Part shown: positions 9,608 through 52,729 of the stretch, piece after piece
Numbering within the stretch: the first letter of the stretch is position 1
How the letters are laid out: each line of letters begins with the position of its first letter
Assembly (NCBI GenBank): GCA_016786765.1
Contig: JAEUUZ010000017.1
Location: 104,077 to 168,076, forward strand
DNA: 64,000 nt
Origin: Chitinophagales bacterium
GTDB lineage: Bacteria > Bacteroidota > Bacteroidia > Chitinophagales > LD1
Direction of reading: 5' to 3'
Program-made: the position numbers and the translations under genes
Notes under the pieces: model-generated
The model's input: only the letters and a program-made list of their open reading frames with translations
The model's database searches: none
Told to the model about the DNA's origin: nothing

Positions 9608-9677
9608 TCTTAATAATTTTAAGTTTACCTTGAGATATTGTGAAAGTAAAACAATTCACCAATAAAGTTTTTTGAAA

Positions 9678-10919
9678 ATGATTAGGATTTCAAAAATGAT
9701 TAAATTTTTGTTTTTCCCGCTTTTTGCATATGCTTTGTGGGAAATCTACCAAGCCAGTAAAGTAGGTTCGCTCTTTATAAAATGGCATACCCATATAGCA
9801 TTATACATCTACTTGTGGATTGTAACTATTGCTTTGCTGTTTTTGGTCAATAAAATTATATATCTGAAACAGTATACTAATATCCAAACATCAGCAACCA
9901 CATTCTGGGGAATACTTTTACTTGTTGAAATGTACTTGGTTAAGTTTGGTAACATGGATACTTATATGGAAAAAATCGAATACGGGTATGTGTCGAGATA
10001 TGGGTCAAATCATGAAGATTACTATCGGACCCACAAACCGAATGAGGTATTTTACATTTCTCGTCCAGAGTTTAATCATATACGCCACTGTAATTCGCTA
10101 GGATTTTCGGATATAGAGTGGCCCATTCAAAAGCGGAAGAATGAAAAGCGTATACTTGTTTTAGGCGATAGTTTTACGGAAGGCGTTGGGGCGCCATTTG
10201 ATTCAAATTGTGTGAGCATTTTGCGTCAACTCTTCGCAGCATCTGATACGAATGTCTCGTTCATGAATGCCGCTAATGCGGGTGACGACCCTTGTGTTAA
10301 TTTTGTTTGTTATCGCGATTTGCTCCGAAAGTACAAGCCAGACATAATAGTACAAACATTATCTTCAAACGATATGCATACCGACTTGGTAACAAAAGGG
10401 GGGCTAGAGCGATTCAAGCCAAACGGTAAGGTGCAGTTTGAAAAAGGGCCGTGGTGGGAGCCCATTTATGCCTTGAGCCATGTGTCGCGTTTATTTTTTA
10501 ATGCTGTAGGGTATAATGAATTGCTAATAAAAATGCCCTTCTCCGTAGAAGACAAGGCACAACTTGATGCCAAAGCTATTGCTCTTTTTGATACTTATTC
10601 GAAATTAGCCCAACAAGAAAATGCACTTCTAATGGTGTTGCTTCAGCCGGATCAAACAGCAGTTTACAATAAAACGTTTGAATATAGTTTAGATACAATC
10701 GTGAAGCATATTTCGAAATTTGACAATGTGAAAGTAGCTAGCTTGCTTCCTTTTTATCTTAATTTTTTTGCTGACAAACAGGATAGTATTACCCATTATT
10801 ATTGGATTCAAGATGGGCACCATAACGCTAAAGGATATACACTGATGGCAAAGTCGATGAAGTATAGTTTAGATTCATTAACAAGCAGTATTGCTGAAGA
10901 GTTAAGCCGCAGAAAGTAA
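9678..10919 (+). CDS. membrane-anchored SGNH/GDSL-family protein
   Basis: The ORF track starts at TTG 9672; the first ATG is at 9678. N-terminal TM helices are present. 'ILVLGDSFTEGVGAPFD' (block I), 'NAGDDP' (block III-like), 'QDGHHNAKG' (DxxH). Confidence 0.65.
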   Translation: MIRISKMIKFLFFPLFAYALWEIYQASKVGSLFIKWHTHIALYIYLWIVTIALLFLVNKIIYLKQYTNIQTSATTFWGILLLVEMYLVKFGNMDTYMEKIEYGYVSRYGSNHEDYYRTHKPNEVFYISRPEFNHIRHCNSLGFSDIEWPIQKRKNEKRILVLGDSFTEGVGAPFDSNCVSILRQLFAASDTNVSFMNAANAGDDPCVNFVCYRDLLRKYKPDIIVQTLSSNDMHTDLVTKGGLERFKPNGKVQFEKGPWWEPIYALSHVSRLFFNAVGYNELLIKMPFSVEDKAQLDAKAIALFDTYSKLAQQENALLMVLLQPDQTAVYNKTFEYSLDTIVKHISKFDNVKVASLLPFYLNFFADKQDSITHYYWIQDGHHNAKGYTLMAKSMKYSLDSLTSSIAEELSRRK

Positions 10920-10929
10920 TAGGGAAACA

Positions 10930-12204
10930 ATGAAAGACAGCACATCAAGATTTATGAGGTACTTTTTGCTTTTTGAAAAGAAAGGCTTTTCTGTTTCCAT
11001 TAGCTTAAGTTATCGGTACATACTTCTTTTATTTACGTTTCCTTATTTGATATGGGAAATCTATTGGGCTAGTCAAGTTGGCTATGTAAGTATAAAATGG
11101 CACACACACCTAATGCTTTATCTGTATCTATGGATAATAGGCTATTTTACGCTGTCTTTTTTAACGCGCAATGCCAATCGCAATACATATGCAAATAGTT
11201 TATTGTTCTTAACTGCAACTCTTTTGGTTTTATTTATAGTAGAGTTTTTTTGTGTTGTTTTTAAACTAAAGCAAACAACTATTGAGTCTTTTGGAAACGG
11301 ATATTATTCATGGCACAATTCGCATTGGGAAACATGGTACCGTTCTTCTGTTCCAAACAAAGAGTATTGGTTGCGTAAAGAGGAATATCAGTATCAACGG
11401 TACGCAAATTCGTATGGTTTTGGCGATAGAGAGTGGGTAGAAAAAAAGGCTAAAAACGAAAAAAGGGTGTTGTGTTTGGGAGACTCTTACACCGAAGGAG
11501 ACGGTGCACCTTTTGATTCCACATATGTAGCGTTTTTGTGCAACAGCTTACGGGAAATAGATACATCTGTTTCTGTTATGAATGCCGGAACGTGTGGTAA
11601 CGACCCATTTGTAAACTTCGTGAATTATAGGGATAGATTGGTTAAGTTTAATCCGAATATTATTGTACAAACGATTTCCTCCGGAGACCTTACTGTTGAC
11701 TTAATGGTGAGAGGCGGCATGGAGCGGTTTGAAAAAAATGGCAAAGTAAAGTATAGGGCAGCACCTTGGTGGGAGCCAATATATGCTATTAGTTATATCT
11801 CGCGTTTCTATTTTAGTGCCTTGGGATATAATGAGTTGTTAATGAAGGATAGCGATGTGCAAAAGCGAAAAGCGGAGCTCGATGCAATAGTAGTTGATCT
11901 TTTTAAACACTATGCAACCCTTGCCAAAAGAAACGGCTCGAGACTGGTTGTCGTTTTTCATCCCTATAAAGGAGAAGTAATTGCCGAAAAATATGCATAC
12001 GATTTCACTCAAATAGAAAACCGGTTAAAAGCCATAGACAATCTTTATGTCTTGAATTTACTTCCAGTGTATATTTCGAAGACAAAAGGTAGTAAATCCG
12101 TTGAACGTTATTATTGGCCTAAAGACGGGCATCATAATTCGACAGGTTATGCCATGATGGCCGATGGGATTTATGAATACCTTGTGAAGGATTGGGCGAG
12201 ATAA
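10930..12204 (+). CDS. membrane-anchored SGNH/GDSL-family protein (tandem paralogue of 9678-10919)
   Basis: 'VLCLGDSYTEGDGAPFD', 'GTCGNDP' (GxND), 'KDGHHNSTG' (DxxH). It is collinear with the upstream gene, e.g. 'WEIYWASQVGYVSIKWHTH' versus 'WEIYQASKVGSLFIKWHTH'. Confidence 0.65.
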   Translation: MKDSTSRFMRYFLLFEKKGFSVSISLSYRYILLLFTFPYLIWEIYWASQVGYVSIKWHTHLMLYLYLWIIGYFTLSFLTRNANRNTYANSLLFLTATLLVLFIVEFFCVVFKLKQTTIESFGNGYYSWHNSHWETWYRSSVPNKEYWLRKEEYQYQRYANSYGFGDREWVEKKAKNEKRVLCLGDSYTEGDGAPFDSTYVAFLCNSLREIDTSVSVMNAGTCGNDPFVNFVNYRDRLVKFNPNIIVQTISSGDLTVDLMVRGGMERFEKNGKVKYRAAPWWEPIYAISYISRFYFSALGYNELLMKDSDVQKRKAELDAIVVDLFKHYATLAKRNGSRLVVVFHPYKGEVIAEKYAYDFTQIENRLKAIDNLYVLNLLPVYISKTKGSKSVERYYWPKDGHHNSTGYAMMADGIYEYLVKDWAR

Positions 12205-16324: not shown

Positions 16325-17518
16325 ATGAATATAGAGAAGCTTAGAAAATTAGATTTCTTGTTGGGTTCGGTAATGATAGTGTTACTGAGACCGGCTTCTA
16401 TTCTTTTGGGTACAATACTCAGACGAAATCACGATATGGTGATTCGGAAACATTTAGTAGTGCTAAAAATAAAGGGAGGGGGCAGCTTATTATTGGCCAT
16501 GCCTGCCATGTTATCGCTTCGTAAAAAATATCCTGACAAGCGCTTTACCTTAGTCACTTCTGCAGAAGTAAAACCCTTTGCCGAATTGATGGGTGTTTTT
16601 GATGAAATCGTTTTAGTAGACACCACTCGCTTTTTCGCTTTTTTCTTTTCTACGATTGCCGCAATACGGAAATCGTTTCGAGCAGATGGATTCATCAATT
16701 TTGAGATACACTCGAAATTAACTACAGTATTTTCCTCCTTGTCTTGTGCCCGAAATCGCTTTGGATTTTATCACGAAACCAACTCTTGGCAACGCGATGT
16801 TATAACGCATCTTTTCTTTTACAATATCACCTCTCCTGTATACATCAATTACAATCAGGTAGCACTTGTGTTGGGTGCCAACATATTGAATTATAGAGAG
16901 GTATCGGACTTTTTTCTTCAACATAATGCATTGGGTAAACCTTCAGCGCAAGACGCACCGGCTCAAATTGTTTTAGCTCCCTTTTGTTCTGATTTAGGTA
17001 AAGAGCGCGAGTTTACCCCAGAGCAGTGGGCTGAAATCCTAAAAGCAGAACTTGGCGATCAAAACAGTACAGTAGTGATTTTGGGTGGTAAAGGCGATGT
17101 GTCCAGAGCCGGAGCATTAGCGAGCCATCTTACGAAAAGTAATCCTAAACTCAATTTTATCAACCTTGTAGGGAAAACAACACTTCACGAATCGGCTATC
17201 CTTATCAAATCAGCAAACGTTTTTTTTACTATCGATTCCGGGCTAAATCATATTGCTCGCTTGATGGGGGAAGGTCCGCAGATTGTATCCTATTGGGGGC
17301 CAACAGATCCATCAACAAGATTAGCCCCGTTTCCTACTATCAACGAAACCGTTGTTTATAAAAAAATGTTTTGTTCCCCTTGTGTGCATGTTGTGGCAAC
17401 ACCGCCTTGTAAAGGCAATAATATATGTATGCAACAATATGCAAAGGCTGATTTAAATCAATATTCTACAGGAGGCTGGCTTATAATTTCCAACAGCGCT
17501 ACCCCAAAAAATGTTTGA
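16325..17518 (+). CDS. GT9-family (heptosyltransferase-like, GT-B) glycosyltransferase
   Basis: 397 aa. 'LKIKGGGSLLLAMPAMLSLRKKYPDKRFTLVTS', 'VVILGGKGD' and 'FFTIDSGLNHIARLMG' match the layout of ADP-heptose:LPS heptosyltransferase-type proteins. Confidence 0.7.
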   Translation: MNIEKLRKLDFLLGSVMIVLLRPASILLGTILRRNHDMVIRKHLVVLKIKGGGSLLLAMPAMLSLRKKYPDKRFTLVTSAEVKPFAELMGVFDEIVLVDTTRFFAFFFSTIAAIRKSFRADGFINFEIHSKLTTVFSSLSCARNRFGFYHETNSWQRDVITHLFFYNITSPVYINYNQVALVLGANILNYREVSDFFLQHNALGKPSAQDAPAQIVLAPFCSDLGKEREFTPEQWAEILKAELGDQNSTVVILGGKGDVSRAGALASHLTKSNPKLNFINLVGKTTLHESAILIKSANVFFTIDSGLNHIARLMGEGPQIVSYWGPTDPSTRLAPFPTINETVVYKKMFCSPCVHVVATPPCKGNNICMQQYAKADLNQYSTGGWLIISNSATPKNV

Positions 17519-17555: not shown

Positions 17556-18812
17556 TTACTTTTTTTCTGGAAGAGATTCAAGCAAAGTGGGTTTAGGAAC
17601 TGCATAGTGTTTAGATATGGTATTAAAAATATTATTCGCAACTATTTCAATACCACTTTGATTTGTATGTATACAATCTATAAAATATTCGGTTGTGTCA
17701 TTATTATAAATACTTGTGAGATCAAAAAAGTCGGCTATGGAAACAGAATCTACTCGATTCAATATCTTTTTCCTAAGTCGTAAATTGTAGAAGTATTGAC
17801 TGCTATCTTGCATTTTCCAAATGTTTTCTGTTGAAGCACTACACATGTTTTTGTAATAAACCATGGGTTGTAAAAACACAGCAAATTCTGCCCCAAAGGC
17901 TTTCGCAATTTTATCGGTTTTATATATTGCAGAAACATAGTTTTGTGCTATTTCGTTCTCCCAAGATTCAGATAGATAATTGACTTGTTTCCTTAATTGA
18001 TTTTGATTGCCAAATTGATTTGCAAAATAATCTTTAAATAAAACTCTCAATAAATTACTTTTATATGCTATTAAAGCTATGGCAGGATAATTGTTTACGT
18101 TAAAAAAAACATTTTTCTCGTAAGCACAAAAATTGAAAGGATACCCAGGTCTTGGGTCATCAGTATAGGGACTAATAATATCGTTACCTCCATCATAAAA
18201 AATTATCAAATCCGGGCTATAATCAGAAACCTCATAAACAACTCTCGCTAATTCCATATTGACATTAGACGAAATTACTCCCATATTATAAACATATACA
18301 TTGGAGTATCCTGCTTCCAAAAACTTATGCTGAATTATTTCTGAAATTGGAGGATTCCCTCCTGTAACTGTTGAGCCCCCAAGTAAGAATATTCTATATT
18401 CTAATGGCGCTTTGGGTTGTATTTGTTTCTTTTCGGGATATTTAATTGCGCGATTAAATATGGAATCGCCTTTAAACTCGATGTAAGGGTAGCGCTTTCG
18501 AGCTTCGTCCAAGAGCCCTTGATCGAACTTGCTTTTGTATGGAATCAAAATTAAACTAAACAACTCTAATAAATAAAAAGTATAAAGAAGGATAACCCCA
18601 CCACAAAATAGTTTACTACTTTTTGAACGAATTACCCTTGAATAAAATAGTGGGATAAATAGGAAAGGAGCTATAACAACACAAAAAAGCAACAAAAGTA
18701 TTGCGAGCGAATTATTTTGAACATGGTTACTAGTAAAAATAAGTGCTGCTGATAAAACTAAAGTAGTGGTTGAAAAAAGTAACGCCCTTCTTGTTTTTAA
18801 TGCAGATGTCAT
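17556..18812 (-). CDS. membrane-anchored SGNH-like protein
   Basis: 418 aa with about 3 N-terminal TM helices. 'IFLLGGSTVTGG' (Ser block), 'IIFYDGGNDI' (GxND), 'DCIHTNQSG' (DxxH). Confidence 0.45.
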   Translation of the reverse strand: MTSALKTRRALLFSTTTLVLSAALIFTSNHVQNNSLAILLLLFCVVIAPFLFIPLFYSRVIRSKSSKLFCGGVILLYTFYLLELFSLILIPYKSKFDQGLLDEARKRYPYIEFKGDSIFNRAIKYPEKKQIQPKAPLEYRIFLLGGSTVTGGNPPISEIIQHKFLEAGYSNVYVYNMGVISSNVNMELARVVYEVSDYSPDLIIFYDGGNDIISPYTDDPRPGYPFNFCAYEKNVFFNVNNYPAIALIAYKSNLLRVLFKDYFANQFGNQNQLRKQVNYLSESWENEIAQNYVSAIYKTDKIAKAFGAEFAVFLQPMVYYKNMCSASTENIWKMQDSSQYFYNLRLRKKILNRVDSVSIADFFDLTSIYNNDTTEYFIDCIHTNQSGIEIVANNIFNTISKHYAVPKPTLLESLPEKK

Positions 18813-19019: not shown

Positions 19020-21539
19020 ATGAAATCTATTTTTACACTCCTAGCTTTGCTATTCGTGATGTTTTGCCCTGTTTTATCTTTTTCGCAGGGCTGGATAGGA
19101 ATTGGAAGTAATCAACTGAATGGTGTAAACCAAACTGGAACAAACTCTCCACTTTTTGTTGGTATTGGTATTGTTTCGCAACCCTCCGTCACCCTCACTA
19201 CAAGTGGAAGACTTCAGTTTAGAGCACTTACTCTTGATGTTACAAAAAACAACGTATTAGTTGTTGACCCAACTACTGGAGAAGTAAACTATAGACCTCT
19301 TCCTGCAGGACCAACAGGACCAACAGGTGCAACGGGAATCAAGGGTGCAACTGGAGCTACTGGCGCAAAAGGGAATACGGGTGCCACTGGCGCAAAAGGA
19401 AATACAGGTGCTACTGGAGTAAAAGGAAGTACAGGGTCAACGGGAATGGTTGGGAACACGGGTCCCACAGGACCTACTTGTACTTTGACGGCTGCTAATT
19501 TTGGTAGTTGTTCGGGTTCGGGGCCAGATGGGACTTTATCTCTTACAAGTTGTAACGGGATTATTACCACAGCACAAAAAGCATGGTTGACGAGTGGCAA
19601 TAATACCTCCTCATCTGATTATTTAGGCACTTACAATAATGATGATATTCGAATAGCAACTAACAACAATAATTGCAATTTCGATTTGCAAAGACAAAAA
19701 ATGATTATTGCCAAAGATGGCTCTGTAGGAATAGGAAACTATGATGGAACTAACCTACCTATTTATCCTCAAAATAGCCTACTGGTTCAAAGGGGAACAA
19801 ATAATATTGCTTTAGCTGGTGGGTCGATTTACAACGCAATTGGATCAGATTGGACTTTTATTGGCACAAACTCTAAAGGAGCAACAGGCTCAGCAAACAA
19901 TGGGATTTTTACTGCAACTTTGGATGATAACTCCACTAATAGTAGCCTCCAATCCGTTGCTATTGGAATAGGCTCTACCAACACCGCAGGTGCATTTGAG
20001 GCTAGTGGGGACAATGGTGCCACCAATAATGGGATTAATATTAGGGCAATTGGGGAAACAAGTACTAATACTGGTATTAATTTAAATGTAAATGGAGATG
20101 CTGGTACAAATGTTGGTGTGGATGGCAGTGTTGATGGAGTTACAAATAATGTCAATTTGGGAATTACAATGAATGTTACAGGGTCTAACAATAGAAATCA
20201 AGGCATCCAAGCCTTTGCTTCTGGCAATGCCCAACGCAATGTGGGTGTATTTGGAAGCGCTTGGGGTGGCACAATTTCAAATCATGGTGTGCAAGGAAAT
20301 GCAACAGGTGATGGAGTGGAAAATATAGGTGTAAGAGCATATGCTGTTGGTGGCAATGGTGCTGATAACAAAGGTTTGGAAGCTGGAGCTAGTGGAAACA
20401 ACTGTATGAATGCTGCTGTTAGAGTATGGGTAAATGGTGATAATAACCACAATTTTACCAATAGCTTTAACGCAGGTTTTCTTAGTTCAGTTGAAGGGAA
20501 TAACAGTAATAATGTTGCTGTTTACGGAACGATGATAGGAGCATCTGGTCACAATACTAGTAGTGACTGTTATGGCGTGATTGGATCGATTGGAATTGAC
20601 GAAGGTGAAATTCATGTAGGTGTAAAGGGGGAGGTAGTTAGTTATTTAGGCTCCACAGTAAATTATGGTGTATGGGGAGTGCAACCCGCAGGAACTGCAT
20701 CTCCTTCTTCTTCACCTCCTACATCTGGAACAAACGGTACTAATCCTGTGGCCTATGCTGGGTATTTTGAAGGAGATGTATTTTGTAGCAATACTTATTA
20801 TTATTCTGACCCCAAACTAAAACAAAATGTAAAAGAATATAATGGAGCATTGACCCAACTTAGAAAGTTAAACATCAAAAGTTACAACTTCAAAAATGAT
20901 ATTTATCCTGATATGAACTTGCCACAAGGGGATCAGATCGGTGTTTTATCTACAGAACTAAAAACAGTATTCCCAAGTTTGGTAAAACATAGCATGCATG
21001 TTTCATCAGAGAAAAAGGACAATAAATATGTTGAATTTGATGCAGTAAACTACAATGCTCTAATCCCTGTATTAATTCAAGCTGTAAAGGAGTTGGACTC
21101 AAAAAAGAATGAAAACAAACAATTGGAAGAAAAGGTGGCGAATTTGGAAAACAAATTATCACAACTAGCAGCCCTTGAATATAAATTGACACAATTAGAA
21201 AAGAATATAAACGAAATTTGCGATAGGGGCTGTGCAGGAAATAAGGGAATAACATCTACAAGCAACTCGTCTGATGTTAGCGCTCTTTTTCAAAATGTAC
21301 CCAATCCATTGGATAAAACCACAAGAATAGATTATTATATTGGCAGAGATGTGCAATCGTCATTTATTCTATTTTATAATTCGGAGGGTATTGAAATTAC
21401 AAAATTCGAGCATCTTTCTTCAGGCAGTGGAAGTATAACTTTAAATGCGGAAACATTAGCTGCGGGAACGTATTACTATACTCTTTTATGTAACGATAAA
21501 AAAGTGGATACTAAAACAATGATTATTATAGACAAATGA
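19020..21539 (+). CDS. secreted collagen-like / tail-fibre-like surface protein with T9SS C-terminal sorting domain
   Basis: 839 aa. Signal peptide '[24 protein letters not shown]'. 19 G-X-Y triplets. A long Asn/Gly-rich short-repeat region. A Peptidase_S74-type intramolecular chaperone segment ('[15 protein letters not shown]...' plus coiled coil). C-terminal '[19 protein letters not shown]...GTYYYTL...KTMIIIDK' is a T9SS type-A CTD. Confidence 0.85.
19308..19478 (+). repeat. collagen-like (Gly-X-Y)x19 coding repeat
   Basis: 171 nt with 9-nt periodicity encoding [58 protein letters not shown] near-perfect 18-nt unit 'actggcgcaaaagg[ga]aatac[ga]ggtgc' is duplicated. Confidence 0.95.
20805..21224 (+). 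other. intramolecular-chaperone (Peptidase_S74-like) autoproteolysis domain within 19020-21539
   Basis: 'S596-D-P-K-L-K601' has the Ser/Lys spacing of the endosialidase/tail-spike IMC dyad. It is followed by '[16 protein letters not shown]', '[17 protein letters not shown]' and a heptad coiled coil '[30 protein letters not shown]'. Confidence 0.65.
21282..21536 (+). other. T9SS type-A C-terminal sorting domain within 19020-21539
   Basis: The last ~85 aa contain 'LFQNVPNP', '[20 protein letters not shown]' and a terminal '[10 protein letters not shown]'. This is the typical Por secretion tail pattern of Bacteroidota. Confidence 0.8.
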
Positions 21540-21648: not shown

Positions 21649-23292
21649 ATGTTTATACTAAACAAACACAGTCTAATGTCAAAGTACAACTACCTATCAG
21701 TGGTTGTTGCTCTAGTTTTGATTTTACCAACAATAGTATGGATAGTTCTAGACCATGGCGTTTGGCGAGGCGACCCAGTGGGTTATGCAATAACTGCCTT
21801 AATGCTTCACAAGCAATGGGGTTTAGGGTTTCAGGCATGGTTAGGAACCATGTTCAATGGTTACAAGGGCCCAGGTATATATTGGTTAGGGCAGTGTATG
21901 GTTCCTGTTGGGCAGTTATTGGGTAATTTAAATTTTGCCTTTTTACTTATCCCTGTAGGTGCACTTTTTTTATCAATACACTATTTATATAAAAGTTTTG
22001 TGTTATTGCATCAAAGCAAATTAGTTGCATTTTGCGGTTGCTTAATACTTGTGGCTTCTCCACTGCTGAACGGATTAGTTACGGGATTTTGGATTGAGCC
22101 GCTTCAAGTTGCTATTGTATCGTGGTTTATTTATGCCACATGCAAAGCCAAAGATTGGGGCGTAGATGTTACGATTGCAAAACTCCTAATAGCATTTTCG
22201 TTGGCGTTACTTGTTAAAGCATCTTCTCCTCTGTATATCTTGGGATCTGCCGCTACGATTTCTTACGTTATACTAAAGCAATGGTCTACGTTGCAAGTAA
22301 ATCGAAAATTTTTTTTCCTTTTATTTATTGCATTTATAGTAGTATTTCCTACAGTTGTTTTCTATATCTATAATTATGAAGCTATATTGCGTTTCGCTCA
22401 TTTTGCATCAACAAGTCCCTTGTTCAGCTCTAATATTCCTCGTTTTGATCTTTGGCAACAAAATGTTAGCAGCCAATTATTTCAAGAACCAAGCTTTTTT
22501 TTGTCGGTAGTTGTTTTTTTTTCAGGGATTATACTTACACTGAACCGAAAACAATACAATCGTTTAACTGGAATATTTTTACTTTCTGTTTTTCAAATCG
22601 CACTTTTTTTTGCTGCATGGCAAAGTTCATCAAATGTTGATTCGCGTTACTTTGCACCGGCTTTACCCTATTTTTCAGCACTGGTTTGCTGGGCATTGAC
22701 TGCTATCAATGTACGTTTGGTTACAATCATCACAACATGCGTGTTTTTGTTGCAATTTTTTTTGATTACAGGATGTTCGTTTGTTAGTTTATCCCCGTCT
22801 TCTTCATATGGCAATACTCGACCATTCACGGTTAGTCCCGATAACGATATGCGTGTAATACAAGGTGTTCTATCCCTTATTACCCGCGATTCCGCAGTTA
22901 TAGTTGATTTAAGTCCGGAATTGGGTGTGGCAGAAATTCAATATGAGTTAGCAAAAAACAACATAAACGGAAATTGGCAGAACAGTTGCAAAGATATTGG
23001 TATGTTTTTCAACTATAACCATCAAGAGATAGATACATCAACCATTCAAATTGACAGCGTAGTAAATGCCATTCGTAGCTATCATCCCGATTATTATATT
23101 ACTTGGGATTCTAGACGAATGCCAGACATGGTAAAAACAGAGATGCAGCGCATTGACAGGTATAATGCAGTAACAATTCCTGCCCGATGGGCAATTGCCG
23201 AAAAACTTGCCGCTAGCCAGGAATACAGAATTGTTAATTTCCCTAATCAGCCCAAAGTACTAGTGTTTAAACGCATCGAGCCTCGCAAGTAG
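21649..23292 (+). CDS. polytopic membrane protein, GT-C-like candidate
   Basis: 547 aa with about 11 TM helices followed by a soluble C-terminal domain of about 150 aa. It lies directly downstream of the collagen-like gene. No firm motif; the call rests on topology only. Confidence 0.4.
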   Translation: MFILNKHSLMSKYNYLSVVVALVLILPTIVWIVLDHGVWRGDPVGYAITALMLHKQWGLGFQAWLGTMFNGYKGPGIYWLGQCMVPVGQLLGNLNFAFLLIPVGALFLSIHYLYKSFVLLHQSKLVAFCGCLILVASPLLNGLVTGFWIEPLQVAIVSWFIYATCKAKDWGVDVTIAKLLIAFSLALLVKASSPLYILGSAATISYVILKQWSTLQVNRKFFFLLFIAFIVVFPTVVFYIYNYEAILRFAHFASTSPLFSSNIPRFDLWQQNVSSQLFQEPSFFLSVVVFFSGIILTLNRKQYNRLTGIFLLSVFQIALFFAAWQSSSNVDSRYFAPALPYFSALVCWALTAINVRLVTIITTCVFLLQFFLITGCSFVSLSPSSSYGNTRPFTVSPDNDMRVIQGVLSLITRDSAVIVDLSPELGVAEIQYELAKNNINGNWQNSCKDIGMFFNYNHQEIDTSTIQIDSVVNAIRSYHPDYYITWDSRRMPDMVKTEMQRIDRYNAVTIPARWAIAEKLAASQEYRIVNFPNQPKVLVFKRIEPRK

Positions 23293-23375: not shown

Positions 23376-25232
23376 ATGAAAATTGTTTTAGCCTTGGCAC
23401 CTGTATGGGATTCGGTAACACCGCATCTGGCGCTTGCCTTTTTAAAAGCTAGCGTTGAAAAGGCGGGGCACGAATGTAGGTGTATCGATTTCTCCATTCA
23501 GTTTCGGCCGATAATGGTATCGGTGCTTGGAGATGTGAATGCCGATAAACATATCCGCGAGAATCCAAAACTTCCTCAAGGTTGGGCAAAGCAAATTTGT
23601 GATGAAAAACCGGATATTGTTGGGTTTAGTATTCTAGGGTCTAACATTTCGAATACCGCGTTAGTTGCGCGGGAGGTGAAAAAAATATTACCTAATGTGA
23701 TGATTGTATCTGGAGGGCCAAGCCTTACGCGCGAGAACAAGGAAAGCATAATCACCAGTTTACAGTTTTCAGATTATGTAATTGAAGGGGAAGGGGAAAT
23801 TGCTTTGGTCGATTTCATTAACTGCTACGAACAAAAAGGAGATTTCACTAAACTAAAACAAGTATGGATGCGTGATCGGCAGAGTGGTTTATACTACACC
23901 GGACATACAGCGCTACAAAATATTGATGCCATACCCTATCCCGATTTTACCGATTTTGACCGAAAACTCTATCCTTCACCGGAAAAACTTCCGCTTCTGT
24001 TTTCGCGTGGCTGTATTTTGAATTGTAACTATTGCGAGAATAAATGGAATCACCTCACCCAGCGTTCCCGTACCGGGAAAAATGTTTTTGATGAACTAAA
24101 GCATCACGTAAAAAAATACGGTATCAAAGAATACATGTTTAACGATGATTCGCTGATTTCTTCCAAAACATTGCGACAAATGGATGATTATGCCGATCTG
24201 GTTTTGGCCGAAGGGTTGGTGATGCCCTGGAGCGTTTATGGAACAAGAGTAGAGCGATTAATCACGGAAGAATTTACGAATAAGTTGCGCAAAACAGGCA
24301 TGGAAAGACTTTCGTTAGGGGTAGAAAGTTTTTCATCACGGGTACAAAAAGAAATGGGAAAATCTTCACGTTATGATGATGCCGATCGAATGTGCAAGAT
24401 GTTTGCTAATGCAGGTATTAAAACGGAGTCGTGGATTATTTATGGTTATCCAACCGAAACTGATGCCGATTTCGAAGAAACATTAAACTGGTTTATTCAA
24501 AATCCGAATGTGCTCAGCCACGTTACTGCCAATGCTTTTGGACCGAATGCAAAATATATGCACGATCGTCCGGGTGTTGTTACGAATGAAACAAATACAC
24601 ACTGGGGCTGGACAGGTTTAGAGAGTACTTTACAAAAAAGAAAGAAGCGGTTCCTTCAGTTAATTGAAGTGTTGGAGTCGATTCGTGTTGCCCGAAAAGG
24701 CGCATTTACCTATTATTTTGGCGATCCTTTGTATGTGAAATATTTTAAATCGTGGACATTGCGCGACAAAGAATACCTGCTTAAAAACTGGGAGCGACTC
24801 GAAAATATATACAACGATGAGCCTGCTGCAAAACCTTCTGCAATAAAGAAGATATTTAGTTTCATTGGTTTGAAGAGTGTTGATCAGGAACTGAAAAAAT
24901 CTGCAGAGAAAGCTGTGATTCCGGAGAAGCTTGAGGTAGGTGATTTAGAACAAATGAAAGAAAAACTCAGTAAGCGAATCGAGAAAGTTTTGTTACAAAA
25001 CAAAGCACTGTCTGTTGCTGATGTGCAGGCGAAAAGAGATTTTTATATGCGCTACATCGATGAGGTAAAGATACACTTAAACGATAATGTGACCGAAGAG
25101 ATATTGTATTCGTTAACCTTAAAAGGGGATGTGGAACGGATGATAGAAGACATCGACACCCATGCTCCTGAATATTTAGCACAACGTGTAGTGGAACATG
25201 CAGGGAAGTTCATTATCCAGCCGGTAGCATAA
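23376..25232 (+). CDS. B12-binding-domain radical SAM enzyme (class B-like) with helical C-terminal extension
   Basis: 618 aa. N-terminal Rossmann-like region ('MKIVLALAPVWD', 'DIVGFSILGSN', 'VSGGPS'). Core 'FSRGCILNCNYCEN' (CX3CX2C). A C-terminal charged helical tail of about 130 aa. Confidence 0.8.
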   Translation: MKIVLALAPVWDSVTPHLALAFLKASVEKAGHECRCIDFSIQFRPIMVSVLGDVNADKHIRENPKLPQGWAKQICDEKPDIVGFSILGSNISNTALVAREVKKILPNVMIVSGGPSLTRENKESIITSLQFSDYVIEGEGEIALVDFINCYEQKGDFTKLKQVWMRDRQSGLYYTGHTALQNIDAIPYPDFTDFDRKLYPSPEKLPLLFSRGCILNCNYCENKWNHLTQRSRTGKNVFDELKHHVKKYGIKEYMFNDDSLISSKTLRQMDDYADLVLAEGLVMPWSVYGTRVERLITEEFTNKLRKTGMERLSLGVESFSSRVQKEMGKSSRYDDADRMCKMFANAGIKTESWIIYGYPTETDADFEETLNWFIQNPNVLSHVTANAFGPNAKYMHDRPGVVTNETNTHWGWTGLESTLQKRKKRFLQLIEVLESIRVARKGAFTYYFGDPLYVKYFKSWTLRDKEYLLKNWERLENIYNDEPAAKPSAIKKIFSFIGLKSVDQELKKSAEKAVIPEKLEVGDLEQMKEKLSKRIEKVLLQNKALSVADVQAKRDFYMRYIDEVKIHLNDNVTEEILYSLTLKGDVERMIEDIDTHAPEYLAQRVVEHAGKFIIQPVA

Positions 25233-29788: not shown

Positions 29789-30586
29789 TTATTGTTTCAA
29801 AAATCCTTGATGTTTCAATTTGTTCATTGCTTTTCCCCAGAATGACGAAGGAAGCGTAATCAAATCATAACGGTGTAAAAGTACTGCTAATGTCGACTTA
29901 TAGTAAAAAAAACTTTTCGAAACATTTCTTGAACGCCATTCTTCGTTTTGCCAATGAATGAAAGACCATTGAGCAGGAATAGGTTCAGCATTTTGTACCC
30001 ATCGGCTTGTGATATCCCATTGATCAGGGTTGCTTACTCCATGGTTAATGAATTCTTCTAAACCCAATGCTGCAATGGCTGTATTGAGGATTTCGATGGG
30101 TTTATGCCAATCGGTATTATGTTCGTCAACTGTTGCAATGGCTTCCTGATAGCACTTCCACATTAGTTCACTTTTTGGAGGGCATTTCATCACATTGCCT
30201 ACTACTTTTAGTTCATGATGATTTCTAAAAAAGTAAGGCGAATTGGTGTTAAAAGGCTTCAAACAGGTTACATCCATGTCTACCCACCAACCTCCTTTTT
30301 CGTAGAGCAATTTATATCTGAAAATATCGGAGAAGCCGGCTACACTGCCTTTGCCATGGCCGTATTTATTGGTGTTTTTATAGCTGAATACTAGTTCTTT
30401 AGGCACAATGGTGTTTGCATCGCAAAGTACGACCTCTTCAGGAAGCACTGTTTCCAATGGTTCGTATACCCACAATTGAAATGTATGTCCGTTACCAATA
30501 AACGATTTTAAGGTGAGCAGTTCAATTACACTCAACGTTTTCCCTATCCACAGCGAATGGATGATTGTATTGTCTTGAGCTATCAT
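29789..30586 (-). CDS. GT32-like glycosyltransferase (Gly_transf_sug DXD region)
   Basis: 265 aa. 'FSDIFRYKLLYEKGGWWVDMDVTCL' matches the conserved sugar-binding/DXD region of GT32-type transferases. ATGA overlap with the upstream gene at 30583-30586. Confidence 0.7.
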   Translation of the reverse strand: MIAQDNTIIHSLWIGKTLSVIELLTLKSFIGNGHTFQLWVYEPLETVLPEEVVLCDANTIVPKELVFSYKNTNKYGHGKGSVAGFSDIFRYKLLYEKGGWWVDMDVTCLKPFNTNSPYFFRNHHELKVVGNVMKCPPKSELMWKCYQEAIATVDEHNTDWHKPIEILNTAIAALGLEEFINHGVSNPDQWDITSRWVQNAEPIPAQWSFIHWQNEEWRSRNVSKSFFYYKSTLAVLLHRYDLITLPSSFWGKAMNKLKHQGFLKQ

Positions 30587-31785
30587 GTTGCTGCGATATG
30601 TTTTACTACATCATTCCAAACAGGCCATTTTTCGTCACCCCAATGATGATAAATATGAATAAAATAGGGTTGAATCCTTTTTTTTGCTGGTCCGATGAGA
30701 AACGCCAGATGACCTATGTATTCGATGGATTTGTTATTGTAATCTGCAATAAGATTGTATTCCAAAGGGAGTGTAGGGTGTTGCTGAAGATTGAATTGAC
30801 ATACCGTTGCAATCAATGTGCCTTGATCTCTCGTTCGCCAATGGTTATCCTTAAAAATGGACATAGTGCTGTTGTGCCATTGCTCCAAAAAAGCAGCGGA
30901 TTCATCGTTGAATAAAAAAACACCTCCATTCCAATGTTGCCAATGGAAGGGCTTTGCCGTTATATTGAATTTCTTTTCGAGCTGTTCTGCCAAGTGCTCG
31001 CAACTTAGGCGCGTAAGCGATGTTCCGTCTTTTCTAAACCATTGTTTTAGCGAAGTATTATAATTGAATCCGGTTTTTTGAGCTACATATAAAATGTCGT
31101 CTTTGGCATTCTCATCATACTTCAGCAAGGTGTTGTTTTGATCATACCAAAGCCCTGCTTTTTTATCCAATTTGTATTCATTACATAGGTGGTAAAACCG
31201 CCCGGGTAACCAATATTTAAAAGTATGCCAGCGATATAGCCATTTCGATGATTTGCTTTCGGCAATCTTTTTTTCAATGTCGGCAACACATTGATCGATA
31301 TACAACAGTTGAGGTAGCACGTTATTCTGAAAATCGTGATAGTAGTAATAAGGTTTTGGCGAGTCTATGGCAAATGCCTCTTGACAACCACATTGAACAG
31401 CCGATGGACTAAACTCATCCATACTGCAATGGTCTGTGCAAAAAGTAATGGGTGCTGTAAACTTGTCGAAAATGCCGTCAACACTATTATTCAGTGCTAC
31501 TACATCGGTATCCAAATAGCAGTAATTGTTTCCTTTCGGAAGAAATTTATGAAGTCCGGTTTTTAAATAGATACTGGCCTGATGGTGGTTAAATTCTTTT
31601 GGTGTCGGAATATCAACGATGGTATGATGTATTACAGGTATTTCATTTCTACTACTATCCGTTACTACACAAACTTCTTTCGTGCTATACTTTTGGAGTG
31701 CATGTAACGAAAAATGAAGCGTATCAATATGCTCCTTTCCTCCACAAACCACAAAAACAAAAATAGATTTATTTCCTTGCATCAT
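30583..31785 (-). CDS. putative GT-A-like glycosyltransferase (DxD)
   Basis: The ORF is open to 31890, but that start would overlap the upstream SDR gene by 122 nt. The ATG-ATG at 31785/31782 gives a 17-nt overlap. 'IFVFVVCGGKEHIDTLHFSL' and 'YCYLDTDVVAL' (DxD). Confidence 0.4.
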   Translation of the reverse strand: MMQGNKSIFVFVVCGGKEHIDTLHFSLHALQKYSTKEVCVVTDSSRNEIPVIHHTIVDIPTPKEFNHHQASIYLKTGLHKFLPKGNNYCYLDTDVVALNNSVDGIFDKFTAPITFCTDHCSMDEFSPSAVQCGCQEAFAIDSPKPYYYYHDFQNNVLPQLLYIDQCVADIEKKIAESKSSKWLYRWHTFKYWLPGRFYHLCNEYKLDKKAGLWYDQNNTLLKYDENAKDDILYVAQKTGFNYNTSLKQWFRKDGTSLTRLSCEHLAEQLEKKFNITAKPFHWQHWNGGVFLFNDESAAFLEQWHNSTMSIFKDNHWRTRDQGTLIATVCQFNLQQHPTLPLEYNLIADYNNKSIEYIGHLAFLIGPAKKRIQPYFIHIYHHWGDEKWPVWNDVVKHIAAT

Positions 31786-32797
31786 GCTTAATCGCAAAGT
31801 TATACCATTCAATTGTTTTTTGTAATCCTTCTTCAATCGACACCTTTGGCTTAAACGAAATGTGTTGAAAAAGTTTGTTGCAATTCGCAAAGGTTTTAAT
31901 CATTTCGCCTTCACCTCCTTGTTGTTTTTTAACTTGAACTGTTCGACCGGTTTGCTTTCCGATTTCTGCTACATAGGTTGCTATATCTACCGGCTCTCCA
32001 CCGCCAATGTTGTAAATGGAGTGGCCGAGGCTTTTTTGCTTTGCACTGCACAGCTGTTGTACTAGGCGTGCAATAGCTTCACAAACATCCTCCACATAAG
32101 TAAAATCGCGAACCATTGATTGTTGTTGGTGTTGAAAAACGGTAATCTCTTCGTTGTTCAGCACCTTACGAATAAAATTGAAAGTCGCCATATCGGGTCT
32201 TGTCCAAGGACCATATACCGTAAAAAAACGCAAACCAATCATCGTAATATTGTGCTGTTGGGTAAAGTCTTCTGCAAACAGTTCGTTGTTTTTTTTGGTT
32301 GAGGCATAAGGGTTTAACGGGTGGTTTGTATCAGACCCTTCTGTAAATGGATAGTCGCTACAACTCCCATAAACTGATGAGCTGGAGGCATAGATGATTT
32401 TTTTTACCCCATGTTGTTCAGCTATTTCTACTACATTTTTAAACCCTTGTTCATTGACTTTGCGATACTGTTCTTCGTGTTGAATAGAAGGACGAATGCC
32501 TGTTAATGCCGCCAGGTGAATCACTACATCGAAAGTATGCAAACTGAAAAGGGATTGCAGTTTCACACGATCTAGGATGTCGGCAGTAATAAAAACGCCT
32601 TTCTCGGCTGTCACTTCAACCGAATCTTCCTTTTGAATTTGTTGGCTAAAGAAATTGCTGAGGCGTTGTAACTTCATTTGCGGATTAGAAAAGTCGGTTA
32701 GGTTATCGATGCCCATTACAGTGTGCTCTATACACAGTTTTTCCCATAGGTTATAGCCTATGAAACCTGCTGCTCCTGTAATTAAAATCTTTGCCAT
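31769..32797 (-). CDS. NAD-dependent extended-SDR nucleotide-sugar epimerase (UDP-glucuronate 4-epimerase-like)
   Basis: 342 aa. 'ILITGAAGFIGYNL' (GxxGxxG), 'ASSSSVYG', 'YASTKKNNE' (YxxxK). 'IDNLTDFSNPQMKLQRL' resembles the 'DN.NDYYD...K..RL' region of UDP-GlcA 4-epimerases. Confidence 0.8.
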   Translation of the reverse strand: MAKILITGAAGFIGYNLWEKLCIEHTVMGIDNLTDFSNPQMKLQRLSNFFSQQIQKEDSVEVTAEKGVFITADILDRVKLQSLFSLHTFDVVIHLAALTGIRPSIQHEEQYRKVNEQGFKNVVEIAEQHGVKKIIYASSSSVYGSCSDYPFTEGSDTNHPLNPYASTKKNNELFAEDFTQQHNITMIGLRFFTVYGPWTRPDMATFNFIRKVLNNEEITVFQHQQQSMVRDFTYVEDVCEAIARLVQQLCSAKQKSLGHSIYNIGGGEPVDIATYVAEIGKQTGRTVQVKKQQGGEGEMIKTFANCNKLFQHISFKPKVSIEEGLQKTIEWYNFAIKHDARK

Positions 32798-46605: not shown

Positions 46606-48300
46606 TTATAATTCATTTATACCAGCATCAATATAGTCCTCTATAGAAAGCGAAACAATGCCATTTTTCATACTTCCTATAAATTTCCCACCACGATATA
46701 ATCCCTCTCCATTCCAATGTTCATCCATGTAATAGTTTTCATTTTCCAAATAAACAGAAAGTGAATTAATCTCTTTATCCTCACAGATAAAACTATAAAG
46801 ATCGGATGAGGTGTGAATCATACGAAAGGTAAAGCATATTCTATCGTTAAGCGTTAGATTGGCTGTAGAGTTGTGTAATAAATTATTGTCAAATACAATA
46901 GCTTGGCCAGCTTTGAGGCGAACAGGGACTTCAAATTGACGGAGCCATTCCCTGTGTTTTTCATGACAACCAGAGAAAGATCCTCCATAAATTGTTTGCT
47001 GCATACTATGGCTTTTGGGTATTACTGTTAGGCAACCATTTTGTTCATTCACATCAACAAGCGGTACCCAAATGGCATAATGGGGCTCTAGTTGATGGTT
47101 AAGCAATAGAGTGCTGTCAGCATGTAAATCTATATCGCCCGAGGTTAGCGCTTTTTTGGTGTAATATTGCGAAACAGGAATGTTGTAATTCGAAAAATAA
47201 CGATTGAGCGCTGGCTGCACGTTAGCGCTGATAAATTGGTGAATGGTTAATTTTGTTGAGGAATCGGTATGTTGTAAGGTGGTGAATTTGCCAGGCAATT
47301 TATCGATGCCACCGAAATGTTGAGCATAGTGGTCTTGGAATAGTTTTAATTCTGAAGTGCTGAGTAAATCAACAATAGTATATCCTTCCCGGTTAAGTTC
47401 GTTTTCAAAAAAGCGATTGGTCGCAATGTGCAATTGTTTGACATGTACTGCTCTACAACCCCAAAAGGCCATCTGGTAATGCTTTCGAAGTGTTTTGCCA
47501 GTAATGGTATTATTGTCTGTTGGCGACAAATGTGTTATCCCTGTTTTTTCTATTGTTAAAGGCACAATGCCTTTTTCCAATAGTGGAAGATGGCTCAACA
47601 AAACCTCTCCGGTAATTGGGTATAAGTCTGTAGTTTTTTGCTCTGCGTTTTTCTGAAAAAAATAAGTAGGTGCATTTTTCTCTACAAAATTAACGATTAC
47701 TGCAATACGGATTTCATCGGTATTGTTGGGGTGCGAAGCATGAAATAGGCCATTGTGATAGATTAGAATGTTCCCTGCAGGAACATTTATATCGGTGCAG
47801 ATAGCTTTAATCTCATTGCAATATGGAACAACTGGAATACTATAGCTGCCCGAGCGAAAATTGTTGAAAAATTTGTGACTACCAGGCACAACAAACATAC
47901 CCCCGTTCACAGTTGTTGTTAATTGAAGTGGAATCCAAATTTGATAGCTTTTATGTTTTGTTTCGTCTACAATATTCCAATCTTGATGTAACGAAAATTC
48001 CTTATCAACGCGAGCGCCTTTTACCATAAAATGGCCAATGAAATAGTTGTAGTCAGGCAGTAGTGTTTGTAATTTATCACCCACAATTGTCTGGATGGCA
48101 TTACTAATTGCAATTCCTTTTTCTGCAGGATTGGAATTGTGCGAGGCGTACATCTCATTTATAGGTTGTTGCTCGAAATGCTCGGAATAGAGATCTCGCA
48201 ATTGTTGAATTGGGGTATCGTCAAATACCCTAAGCGTGCAAAATCCTAATCGATCAAGCGAATCTAAGAAAGGCTGATATTTTTTGTTTGATGTGTGCAT
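46606..48300 (-). CDS. fused double PhyH-family Fe(II)/2OG dioxygenase
   Basis: 564 aa. Domain 1: 'LHQDWNIVDE' ... 'LFHASHPN' ... 'IRIAV'. Domain 2: 'LHADSTLL' ... 'LLHNSTAN' ... 'DRICF'. The ATG start overlaps the upstream gene by 47 nt. Confidence 0.75.
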   Translation of the reverse strand: MHTSNKKYQPFLDSLDRLGFCTLRVFDDTPIQQLRDLYSEHFEQQPINEMYASHNSNPAEKGIAISNAIQTIVGDKLQTLLPDYNYFIGHFMVKGARVDKEFSLHQDWNIVDETKHKSYQIWIPLQLTTTVNGGMFVVPGSHKFFNNFRSGSYSIPVVPYCNEIKAICTDINVPAGNILIYHNGLFHASHPNNTDEIRIAVIVNFVEKNAPTYFFQKNAEQKTTDLYPITGEVLLSHLPLLEKGIVPLTIEKTGITHLSPTDNNTITGKTLRKHYQMAFWGCRAVHVKQLHIATNRFFENELNREGYTIVDLLSTSELKLFQDHYAQHFGGIDKLPGKFTTLQHTDSSTKLTIHQFISANVQPALNRYFSNYNIPVSQYYTKKALTSGDIDLHADSTLLLNHQLEPHYAIWVPLVDVNEQNGCLTVIPKSHSMQQTIYGGSFSGCHEKHREWLRQFEVPVRLKAGQAIVFDNNLLHNSTANLTLNDRICFTFRMIHTSSDLYSFICEDKEINSLSVYLENENYYMDEHWNGEGLYRGGKFIGSMKNGIVSLSIEDYIDAGINEL

Positions 48301-51920: not shown

Positions 51921-52729
51921 AGTGTTAAGTTTAGTTTTTGCACAACCAGGTCTACTGTGATTAAAGTATGGTGGTAAGGTAATGTTTCAATAATTGTGGC
52001 TTCTGGCTGTTGTCCAATGGTAAGTGGTGCAAGATTTGTTACAAAATACGAATCGGGAAGTGAGTATACATTCGTGAAACCTGTATTTTTTGCGTGGTAG
52101 TATAAAAACGGGGCATCTTTATCCATAACGGTTGTAGCGGCAATAACTCGGTATTGCTTTGTTCTGTTAGGGTGCGATCCATGAAACAAAGCGGGATGAA
52201 AAAGTATGACCTCCCCTTTTTTTAATGAAACAGTGACCACTTTTTTGGCAATATCTGGGTTTGCAGAACTTATGCGTGCTGTGTCATATGCACCCGATCG
52301 AAAGTTTTGAAACCAGTTATGGCTACCTGGAAGAAAGAAAAGTGCTCCATTGTGAATATCTACATCTTGAAGGGGAATCCAAACATTATAGGCGTTGTGC
52401 TTTACCTCGTTAGTGTAACACCAATCTTGATGCAAAAATAATTCACTTTGCATAGGCGGCTTAACAAGAAAAGAACTTGTGACGGTACGAATATTGTTGA
52501 AATTATGGTAAAAAAAGTCTTGTAAAATTTCATTTTGGCTTTGCATAATGTTGATGTTTTCTGCAGGGGTATGCGTAAGCAAGCTATAATAGAAATCGGT
52601 TATGGCGGTTTCAGGCAAATAAGCGTCTATTGAAGTTGTTAGGTGGGCAAGCTCATCTTCGTTTAGTTTTCCTACAATGGCAAATCCATCTTGCAGTAAA
52701 CACTGTTCTATGTGTTTATTTTTTAACAT
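51908..52729 (-). CDS. PhyH-family Fe(II)/2OG dioxygenase
   Basis: The ORF is open to 52849. The ATG at 52729 ('MLKNKHIEQCLLQDGFAIV') matches paralogue N-termini and cuts the overlap with the upstream cytochrome gene to 14 nt. 'LHQDWCYTNE', 'NGALFFLPGSH', 'LFHGSHPN', 'YRVIAA'. Confidence 0.7.
   Translation of the reverse strand: MLKNKHIEQCLLQDGFAIVGKLNEDELAHLTTSIDAYLPETAITDFYYSLLTHTPAENINIMQSQNEILQDFFYHNFNNIRTVTSSFLVKPPMQSELFLHQDWCYTNEVKHNAYNVWIPLQDVDIHNGALFFLPGSHNWFQNFRSGAYDTARISSANPDIAKKVVTVSLKKGEVILFHPALFHGSHPNRTKQYRVIAATTVMDKDAPFLYYHAKNTGFTNVYSLPDSYFVTNLAPLTIGQQPEATIIETLPYHHTLITVDLVVQKLNLTLQDQ

Follow-up and report, generated by a model that had tools for sequence, protein, structure and literature searches.

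We analyzed a gene encoding a collagen-like, tail-fiber-like protein (positions 19020-21539) in a stretch of 64,000 nucleotides (nt) from a Chitinophagales bacterium (contig JAEUUZ010000017.1; hereafter the window), the whole of which (positions 1-64000) forms one island rich in radical S-adenosylmethionine (SAM) genes. The results favored, with a probability of approximately 0.55, an accessory surface fiber that travels with a membrane SGNH/GDSL enzyme acting on the same surface polymer and that is not a dedicated acceptor of collagen-type modification. A sequence-only reading of the same DNA had proposed that part of the locus may hydroxylate and/or glycosylate the collagen-like region of the fiber. 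This proposal did not withstand comparison: most of the corresponding islands lack the fiber gene, and neither the collagen-like run nor its Lys residues are conserved among the relatives of the fiber.

An optional insert and its link to membrane SGNH genes

Twenty-three loci from Chitinophagales metagenome-assembled genomes (MAGs) were anchored on the orthologue of the B12-binding radical SAM gene at 23376-25232 (54-96% identity), and all window proteins were mapped onto them; 16 of these loci were of the island type. A fiber homologue was detected in two of the 16 islands, L011 and L018 (40% identity), and the remaining 14 contained none. An open reading frame (ORF) with six or more G-X-Y triplets was absent from all 23 loci. 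The idea that orthologous loci always carry a collagen-like gene, which the sequence-only reading had put forward as a check, was therefore contradicted; that reading had itself named absence or variability of the gene in syntenic loci as a result that would refute its proposal.

The islands share a conserved gene string, which comprises a radical SAM gene (12244 in the window), a GT2 glycosyltransferase (GT) gene, a second radical SAM gene (15177), GT9, and GT-C. In L017 and L023, the GT9 and GT-C genes share 22 nt, and in L028 the distance between them is 4 nt; the window has 4.1 kb at this point, made up of an SGNH gene (17556-18812) and the fiber gene. The same slot in L007 (84% identity) is occupied by two other membrane proteins, one an SGNH fusion and one polytopic. 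The 10 kb retrieved upstream in L006, which is closest to the window (96% identity in the radical SAM block), contained no fiber. No convincing direct or inverted repeats were found at the borders of the 4.1-kb insert, and the SGNH gene alone exhibited a mild dip in GC content (30-33% versus 37-41% in the flanks). Because the insert splits a GT9-GT-C pair that is otherwise contiguous, and because the fiber is absent elsewhere, the fiber is an optional accessory of the island, an insert that varies among otherwise syntenic loci.

The fiber family was defined by the central domain of the protein, amino acids (aa) 155-570. This family is rare: when 1.84 billion representative proteins were searched exhaustively with HMMER, 24 reached E ≤ 1e-3 and 15 reached E ≤ 1e-10; a word-indexed search with the same domain was swamped by low-complexity candidates and returned two matches. 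We examined 11 independent genomic contexts of the family. In nine of them, the fiber gene adjoins membrane SGNH/GDSL paralogues or the B12-binding radical SAM gene of the island. Four contexts (the window, L011, L018, and the P0153 contig) lie beside the radical SAM gene, and five lie outside the island (L002/L003, L004, L005, L093, and L099), each with a membrane SGNH gene of the 9672, 10930, or 975 type within approximately 3.5 kb. The same SGNH families had no match in approximately 106 kb of nonisland flanks (L009, L010, L013, L014, L026, and L027), and none was found beside 55 metagenome loci that match just the C-terminal part of the fiber, with its Peptidase_S74 (S74) and sorting domains, or just its collagen run. 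More distant fibers that combine collagen, S74, and type IX secretion system (T9SS) segments sit among housekeeping genes.

These neighborhood counts, together with the empty control flanks, indicate that the fiber is not a random passenger. The family is nonrandomly linked to the island through membrane SGNH/GDSL enzymes and the B12-binding radical SAM gene; the steady partner of the fiber is the SGNH enzyme, not the GT-C enzyme or an oxygenase, and the link does not involve the collagen segment.

A further secreted repeat protein was observed beside the radical SAM gene. Outside the island, one or two Gly/Thr/Ser/Asn-rich proteins of 745-821 aa (L013, 5382-10144; L014, 11952-14267; L026, 11940-14177) are encoded after its orthologue (61-63% identity) in convergent orientation. 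Their T9SS sorting domain is clear (40-43 bits), and they have no similarity to the fiber. Because these cases represent one lineage, they are a lead and not evidence.

Architecture of the fiber and variability of its collagen-like run

A single public contig of 116 kb (Logan, SRR31521329) carries the exact 839-aa protein. From the N- to the C-terminus, the protein consists of a signal peptide, an N-domain of approximately 70 aa, the collagen-like run, a Cys-containing neck, and 14-residue repeats, followed by a Ser/Pro/Thr-rich linker, the Peptidase_S74 domain, a coiled coil, and an 85-aa C-terminal beta domain (Table 1). Much of this anatomy had been described in the sequence-only reading. 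The signal peptide was recognized in the translation, the 19 G-X-Y triplets were confirmed by count, the Asn/Gly-rich short repeats resolved into a 14-residue unit, the Ser/Pro/Thr-rich linker was present, and the resemblance to tail fibers was traced specifically to the S74 chaperone domain. Relatives with an intact N-terminus (P0003, P0004, and the L093 copy) share an S/A-Q-G-W/F motif after the hydrophobic core. Bacteroidota habitually place Gln directly after the signal peptidase I site, and the predicted N-terminal Gln23 of the fiber agrees with this habit.

The Y position of the 19 triplets is occupied by Thr in 14 cases, by Lys in 4, and by Val in 1. None of 20,000 composition-preserving shuffles of the protein reached eight triplets, the run was the sole one of at least six G-X-Y triplets across the six frames of the window, and the Pfam Collagen model (PF01391) scored 34 bits against a cutoff of 27.2. 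Three of the four Lys-at-Y triplets are supplied by a 27-nt tandem repeat. Among 15 family representatives, runs of at least four G-X-Y triplets occurred in 6 and were missing from 9, and Lys at Y did not occur in any of the 15, including the 6 with collagen runs. In P0002, the closest relative of the fiber (57-59% identity), the four Lys positions of the window copy are taken by N, N, D, and A, and none of the approximately 30 triplets of P0003 contains Lys. The island-resident L011 copy and the copy on the P0153 contig have no collagen run, and the L018 copy has none in its visible part, its N-terminus being cut by the contig edge. On the basis of the variable presence of the run, the restriction of Lys to the window copy, and the 27-nt repeat, the collagen-like run behaves as a dispensable spacer or stalk of variable length that is expandable by tandem duplication, and it is not a conserved target.

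The conserved business part of the fiber is the Cys-rich neck, which carries an invariant 11-residue motif, together with the 14-residue Asn/Gly repeats of the predicted beta-solenoid. Autocorrelation of the repeat region yielded z scores of 7.0 at lag 14 and 6.0 at lag 43. The AlphaFold2 (AF2) monomer model, with a mean predicted local distance difference test score (pLDDT) of 48, was usable for the repeats, the helix, and the C-terminal domain only; such a low monomer value is as expected for a trimeric fiber. Over the repeats, the model predicted regular beta strands, with mean pLDDT values of approximately 42-80 in 10-residue blocks and the best values (66-80) at aa 331-390. The YadA_head hidden Markov model (HMM; PF05658) did not match the window fiber and matched 1 of 14 relatives (E 4e-07).

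The Peptidase_S74 HMM was matched by all 14 aligned relatives, and Ser596, Asp597, and Lys601 were invariant in 7 close and 14 wider aligned relatives. Catalytic Ser/Lys dyads have been described in endoNF (S911/K916) and MyRF (S587/K592; PMC8326128). The putative Ser596/Lys601 dyad of the fiber has the same i/i+5 spacing. The S74 domain and the 64-residue helix that follows it constitute the noncollagenous, putative trimerization part of the chain, and by analogy with the literature on endoNF and MyRF they may drive trimerization of the fiber. We infer that the family is a rare, Chitinophagales-restricted group of cell-surface fibers that would assemble as trimers.

The C-terminal domain can be aligned across P0002-P0005, and the Por_Secre_tail model (PF18962) matched 7 of 14 relatives (best E 7e-07). 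AF2 predicted a beta sandwich with strands at aa 755-836 and a pLDDT of 75-84 over aa 755-839. A Foldseek search with this sandwich returned the T9SS sorting domains 8glk_D (NucA, TMt 0.63) and 8qb1_A (mirolase, TMt 0.60), at E values of just approximately 0.04 and with generic Ig folds ranking equally. Chitinophagales generally possess a T9SS; no T9SS components were found within the window. The matches in relatives and the predicted fold suggest that the protein is probably a Sec-exported, S74-assisted trimeric fiber and a T9SS cargo.

Two side observations concern the structure of fiber genes. In L093 (10001-12314), a frameshift or an assembly error divides the homologue into ORFs of 357 and 363 aa; the homologue retains approximately 12 G-X-Y triplets despite the split and has a convergent SGNH gene alongside. 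Fiber genes with S74 and sorting domains also occur in tandem arrays, five in L053 (10070-18114) and two-gene arrays in L002 (8528-12388) and L057 (10001-17954), which suggests that such fibers diversify through local duplication.

In its overall design, the fiber belongs to a widely annotated and uncharacterized class of Bacteroidota T9SS proteins that NCBI names 'tail fiber domain-containing protein' (for example, P0028, P0052, and P0078), with a BclA-like GXT run. Members of this class have a similar architecture of signal peptide, optional collagen run, fibrous repeats, S74 domain, and T9SS domain, the last being probable in the fiber. However, they share just the C-terminal 250-330 aa with the fiber and lie in housekeeping contexts without SGNH or radical SAM neighbors, and the family defined by the central domain of the fiber is far smaller. 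Our literature search found no experimentally characterized Bacteroidota member of this class and no paper on S74-bearing or collagen-like T9SS cargo, and no account was found of the handling of cargo that would cleave itself upstream of its sorting domain.

Several other systems resemble parts of the fiber. The C-terminal intramolecular chaperones of the phage endosialidase endoNF and of tail fibers and the ICA domain of MyRF share the S74 match, the Ser/Lys dyad, a helical bundle after it, and a beta-helical or fibrous region upstream; unlike in these proteins, the chaperone of the fiber precedes a candidate secretion-sorting domain, and the fiber would be Sec-exported and is not part of a virion. 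BclA of Bacillus anthracis and streptococcal Scl1 and Scl2 likewise display, on a trimeric surface fiber, GXY triplets that continue without interruption and have many Thr residues at Y, and models of BclA and Scl were the best sequence matches to aa 82-158. They differ from the fiber in their trimerization parts (a C1q-like head in BclA and the V domain in Scl, versus S74 and the coiled coil) and in their anchoring (exosporium attachment and LPXTG, respectively, versus the putative T9SS domain), and the collagen run is dispensable within the fiber family, unlike in these systems. Type-A cargo of the T9SS that is anchored to anionic lipopolysaccharide or O-antigen, such as RgpB of P. gingivalis and that of C. 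hutchinsonii, has a C-terminal beta-sandwich signal, to which the predicted C-terminal sandwich of the fiber would correspond. The YadA_head, a 14-residue left-handed beta-roll, shares the 14-residue period and conserved small or Asn/Gly positions, whereas the window fiber, unlike trimeric autotransporter adhesins, has no match to the YadA_head HMM and no autotransporter anchor.

The surrounding island

The island contains at least 11 radical SAM genes, including four with an N-terminal twitch domain (NF033640), three of the B12-binding type, and the SPASM type. Its membrane and transferase genes encode four membrane SGNH/GDSL paralogues, GT2, GT8, and GT9 enzymes, and three GT-C-like proteins, accompanied by two AsnB-type amidotransferases, a carbamoyltransferase, a DegT aminotransferase, a UbiA prenyltransferase, and a TagH/Wzt-like ABC ATPase. 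The oxygenases comprise seven PhyH proteins, one WelO5-like protein, two AspH-type proteins, and one JmjC/cupin_8 protein. A rearranged version of the island is present in at least 16 Chitinophagales MAGs, and our literature search found no paper on this radical-SAM-rich island type. The neighboring enzymes named in the sequence-only reading, namely a GT-C-like protein, a PMT-like protein with tetratricopeptide repeats (TPR), AspH-type proteins, and a JmjC protein, were all recovered in the window.

The GT-C gene starts 109 nt 3' of the fiber gene on the same strand. The AF2 model of its product (pLDDT 86.7; predicted TM-score, pTM, 0.89) has a GT-C fold, and D35 and D42 are invariant. PMT_2 was matched by 10 of 18 orthologues (best E 5.9e-08), the window protein itself having no Pfam match, and one orthologue is named 'glycosyltransferase family 39 protein' by NCBI. 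Foldseek matches included DPY19 (9e-06), STT3 (3e-05), AftA, and ArnT (3e-04; TM 0.54/0.54); these comprise both protein-acceptor and lipid/glycan-acceptor enzymes, and the acceptor is not readable from the fold. Synteny links the GT-C gene to GT9 and the radical SAM genes, not to the fiber. Searches of PDB sequences with the GT-C protein, a GT-C profile, and the SGNH protein found nothing.

The 2-oxoglutarate (2OG) oxygenase gene nearest to the fiber encodes a PhyH protein and is located at 44408, at a distance of 22.9 kb. The AspH-type genes start at 57220 and 59691 and the JmjC gene at 60485, 36-39 kb from the fiber. Among NCBIfam models, the AspH-type proteins were nearest to the lipid hydroxylases OlsC and LpxO, far under the cutoffs, and the PhyH proteins were nearest to the 'sporadic carbohydrate cluster' oxygenase TIGR04324; no curated NCBIfam family was nearest to the JmjC protein. 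From its gene content, the island looks like a surface carbohydrate or glycolipid type rather than a protein-modification type.

Other observations concern the remaining genes of the window. The SGNH gene of the insert is just marginally similar to the other three SGNH paralogues. Two multiheme or c-type cytochrome genes (SoxA/TsdA-like and MtrC-like) lie at 52716-55426, between the PhyH block and the block of AspH, JmjC, and B12-binding radical SAM genes. A 564-aa protein at 46606-48300 contains two PhyH matches as a fused double oxygenase; it lies within a run of six PhyH genes that includes the WelO5-like gene (51048-51920), which belongs to the carrier-independent halogenase family. Same-strand ORFs overlap by 122 nt (30583-31890 and 31769-32797) and by 134 nt (51908-52849 and 52716-53708), which probably reflects over-long start-codon choices by the ORF caller. 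A sigma-70 scan, which does not cover Bacteroidota promoters, returned 18 promoter-like sites versus 22.0 expected from shuffles, and a terminator scan returned 2 terminator-like sites versus 4.2 expected from shuffled controls.

Table 1. Positions of the fiber gene, its predicted parts, and the neighboring genes in the window
Feature	Position	Strand	Basis
Fiber gene, 839 aa, ORF intact	19020..21539	+	ORF, Pfam, translation, AF2
Sec-type signal peptide, aa 1-22; Gln23 (QG) would be N-terminal after the predicted cleavage	19020..19085	+	sequence reading
Collagen-like run, 19 uninterrupted G-X-Y triplets, aa 97-153	19308..19478	+	count, Pfam Collagen
27-nt tandem repeat, 2.9 copies, 88% match, encodes (T-G-A-K-G-N-T-G-A)n	19359..19435	+	repeat scan
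Repeat unit of 14-15 residues, N-x-G-[IV]-x-x-x-[AV]-x-G-x-x-x-x, present approximately 15 times over aa 293-511 and predicted to form a beta-solenoid/beta-roll	19896..20552	+	
Ser/Pro/Thr-rich linker, 16 residues, aa 561-576	20700..20747	+	sequence reading
Peptidase_S74 intramolecular chaperone domain, aa 596-656	20805..20987	+	Pfam, 31.8 bits, cutoff 22
Putative self-cleavage dyad, Ser596 / Lys601	20805-20807 / 20820-20822	+	alignment
Long helix / coiled coil, aa 678-741, ends C-D-R-G-C, conserved in relatives	21051..21242	+	AF2
Probable T9SS type-A C-terminal sorting domain, aa 755-839	21282..21536	+	
Two membrane SGNH/GDSL paralogues (9672-10919 and 10930-12204), of the type found beside fiber homologues elsewhere	9672..12204	+	
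GT9 (heptosyltransferase-like) gene, left border of insert	16325..17518	+	
Membrane SGNH/GDSL enzyme, 418 aa, approximately 3 transmembrane helices, GGST / GGND / DCIH motifs	17556..18812	- (divergent from fiber)	
GT-C fold glycosyltransferase, PMT_2/GT39-like, 547 aa, right border of insert	21649..23292	+	
B12-binding radical SAM gene, synteny anchor	23376..25232	+	
PMT_2 + TPR protein	36790-39624		

Competing explanations and implications

The explanation that we favor, in which an accessory surface fiber and the SGNH enzyme that accompanies it have one surface polymer as their common target, can be outlined as follows. The fiber would be exported by Sec and cleaved before Gln23, trimerization would be driven by the C-terminal S74 chaperone domain and the coiled coil, and the T9SS would carry the fiber across the outer membrane. 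Self-cleavage at Ser596 through the Ser596/Lys601 dyad may follow export, and the collagen run would space the N-domain from the beta-solenoid body. Most likely, the SGNH enzyme would acylate or deacylate a surface glycan to which the fiber binds or is anchored; alternatively, it may modify the fiber itself. Type-A T9SS cargo is attached to lipopolysaccharide (LPS)-type glycans in P. gingivalis and is O-antigen-dependent in C. hutchinsonii (PMC11611037). With the fiber gene located inside an LPS/O-antigen-like island, anchoring to the island glycan is conceivable.

Several results weigh against this explanation. Two of the 11 contexts (L036=L095 and L101/L102) contain neither an SGNH gene nor the B12-binding radical SAM gene, and L095 and L099 share a flank (Thr synthase) and differ in the presence of the SGNH gene. 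The SGNH protein of the insert is only marginally similar to the type beside other fibers (E 5e-4 to 0.3). Pairwise divergence of the fibers and of their SGNH neighbors was not correlated (Spearman 0.13, p = 0.57; few and partly truncated sequences), which provides no evidence that the two stayed one unit over long periods. The T9SS assignment, which the sequence-only reading had stated outright, draws its support from the relatives and the predicted fold. On the fiber protein of the window itself, Por_Secre_tail scored 18.2 bits, under the cutoff of 27, TIGR04183 did not match at E ≤ 0.01, and the domain is missing from the L011 (11880-13880) and L018 (3-1628) copies, unlike in RgpB-type cargo. 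These two copies stop right after the coiled coil, and no space is left for a frameshifted remainder before the next gene. Furthermore, Ser596 lies upstream of the sorting domain, and cleavage there would, unlike in endoNF and MyRF, detach the mature fiber from its own export or anchor signal, so that an ordering of events is needed. The GT-C enzyme next door could still glycosylate the fiber in this strain. Finally, domain anatomy, insertion, variability of the collagen run, and neighborhood statistics were observed directly, and the explanation reaches beyond them in assuming that the fiber trimerizes, cleaves itself, and is exported by the T9SS and in what it says of the SGNH enzyme.

That the fiber is a pure passenger is possible but doubtful. 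Fiber and SGNH genes would then accumulate by recombination in a hypervariable surface region and have no functional relation. The slot between GT9 and GT-C is variable indeed, being empty, filled with the fiber and SGNH genes, or filled with the SGNH fusion and a membrane protein; the lower GC content of the adjacent SGNH gene, the lack of codivergence, and the different contents of L095 and L099 behind a shared flank point in the same direction. Chance accumulation is, however, difficult to match with the nine of 11 independent contexts in which so rare a family lies beside signature genes of the island, five of them outside any island, and with the absence of the same SGNH families from both sets of control flanks. 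A phage or prophage tail fiber, or a tailocin fiber, left in the chromosome is highly improbable. An S74 chaperone domain is a typical part of tail fibers and tailspikes of phages, and the phage matches to the protein bear the annotation tail fiber or chaperone of endosialidase; however, tblastn against 50,697 phage records matched just aa 578-739 (26-37% identity), and IMG/VR sequences matched S74 or collagen fragments and not the central domain. The fiber also begins with a Sec signal peptide and ends in a probable T9SS-type domain, and no phage genes, integrase, or flanking repeats surround its gene. We rejected a phage origin because the phage records matched the S74 part alone and IMG/VR matched S74 or collagen fragments alone.

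The collagen-modification model, in which the fiber is a dedicated substrate of the island, appears improbable on these data. In this model, GXT Thr residues would be O-glycosylated by the GT-C or the PMT_2/TPR protein, and Lys residues in X-Lys-Gly would be hydroxylated by JmjC, AspH-type, or PhyH enzymes and then glycosylated. The GXT Thr residues of BclA are O-glycosylated, and BclA was a top PDB sequence match of the run (1wck_A, E 4e-9). The true GT-C fold enzyme immediately downstream, with its best Foldseek E values to the protein-modifying DPY19 and STT3, and the recurrence of fiber homologues in the island are consistent with the model as well. However, the GT-C gene keeps its GT9 partner without a fiber in L007, L017, L023, and L028, most islands have no fiber and none has a collagen-like ORF, and the island-resident copies outside the window show no collagen run in the parts that can be seen. 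Lys at Y is unique to the window copy and stems mostly from one recent tandem duplication. The oxygenases lie 23-39 kb off, with a carbohydrate-cluster oxygenase and lipid hydroxylases as their nearest curated families. Neither the more distant collagen/S74/T9SS fibers in their housekeeping contexts nor the collagen-bearing fibers of L005 and L093 have such modifying enzymes nearby. The general O-glycosylation motif of Bacteroidota, D(S/T)(A/I/L/V/M/T) (PMC11611037), is absent from the whole fiber protein.

The likeness to the collagen lysyl hydroxylase and glycosyltransferase systems of animals (PLOD/GLT25D1) and of mimivirus (L230) is limited to four X-Lys-Gly triplets and the presence of 2OG oxygenases and glycosyltransferases within the 64-kb island. 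Unlike in those systems, the Lys residues of the fiber are not conserved, no oxygenase is adjacent, and substrate and enzymes do not co-occur across genomes; the oxygenase families of the island also differ, being PhyH, AspH (LpxO/OlsC-like), JmjC/cupin_8, and WelO5-like. A bacterial collagen-type modification system is therefore not supported by the sequence comparisons, which revealed none of its three defining features, namely Lys acceptors that are conserved, a collagen-type hydroxylase linked to the substrate gene, and joint occurrence of substrate and enzymes in related genomes. If true, it would be the first pathway of collagen hydroxylation and glycosylation outside animals and giant viruses, and the comparative data make such a pathway unlikely.

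A stronger version of the SGNH link, which we regard as tentative and rather unlikely, would make the fiber family a dedicated client of membrane SGNH/GDSL enzymes and, through them, of the carbohydrate island. The fiber would then be acylated or deacylated itself or be displayed only on an SGNH-modified glycan. If true, this would represent a previously undescribed surface appendage module of fiber and modifying enzyme in Chitinophagales, and it would have the further peculiarity of a T9SS cargo that cuts itself off its sorting domain.

For the favored explanation, in which the fiber is an accessory of the island accompanied by an SGNH enzyme, the fiber is an example of bacterial collagen-like segments that serve as tandem-duplicated spacers and not as conserved functional sites. 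The findings also raise the question of how a self-cleaving S74 domain can be reconciled with T9SS export. The pairing of the fiber with SGNH genes, together with its recurrence in the island, provides a testable handle on the target of at least one enzyme class of this island.

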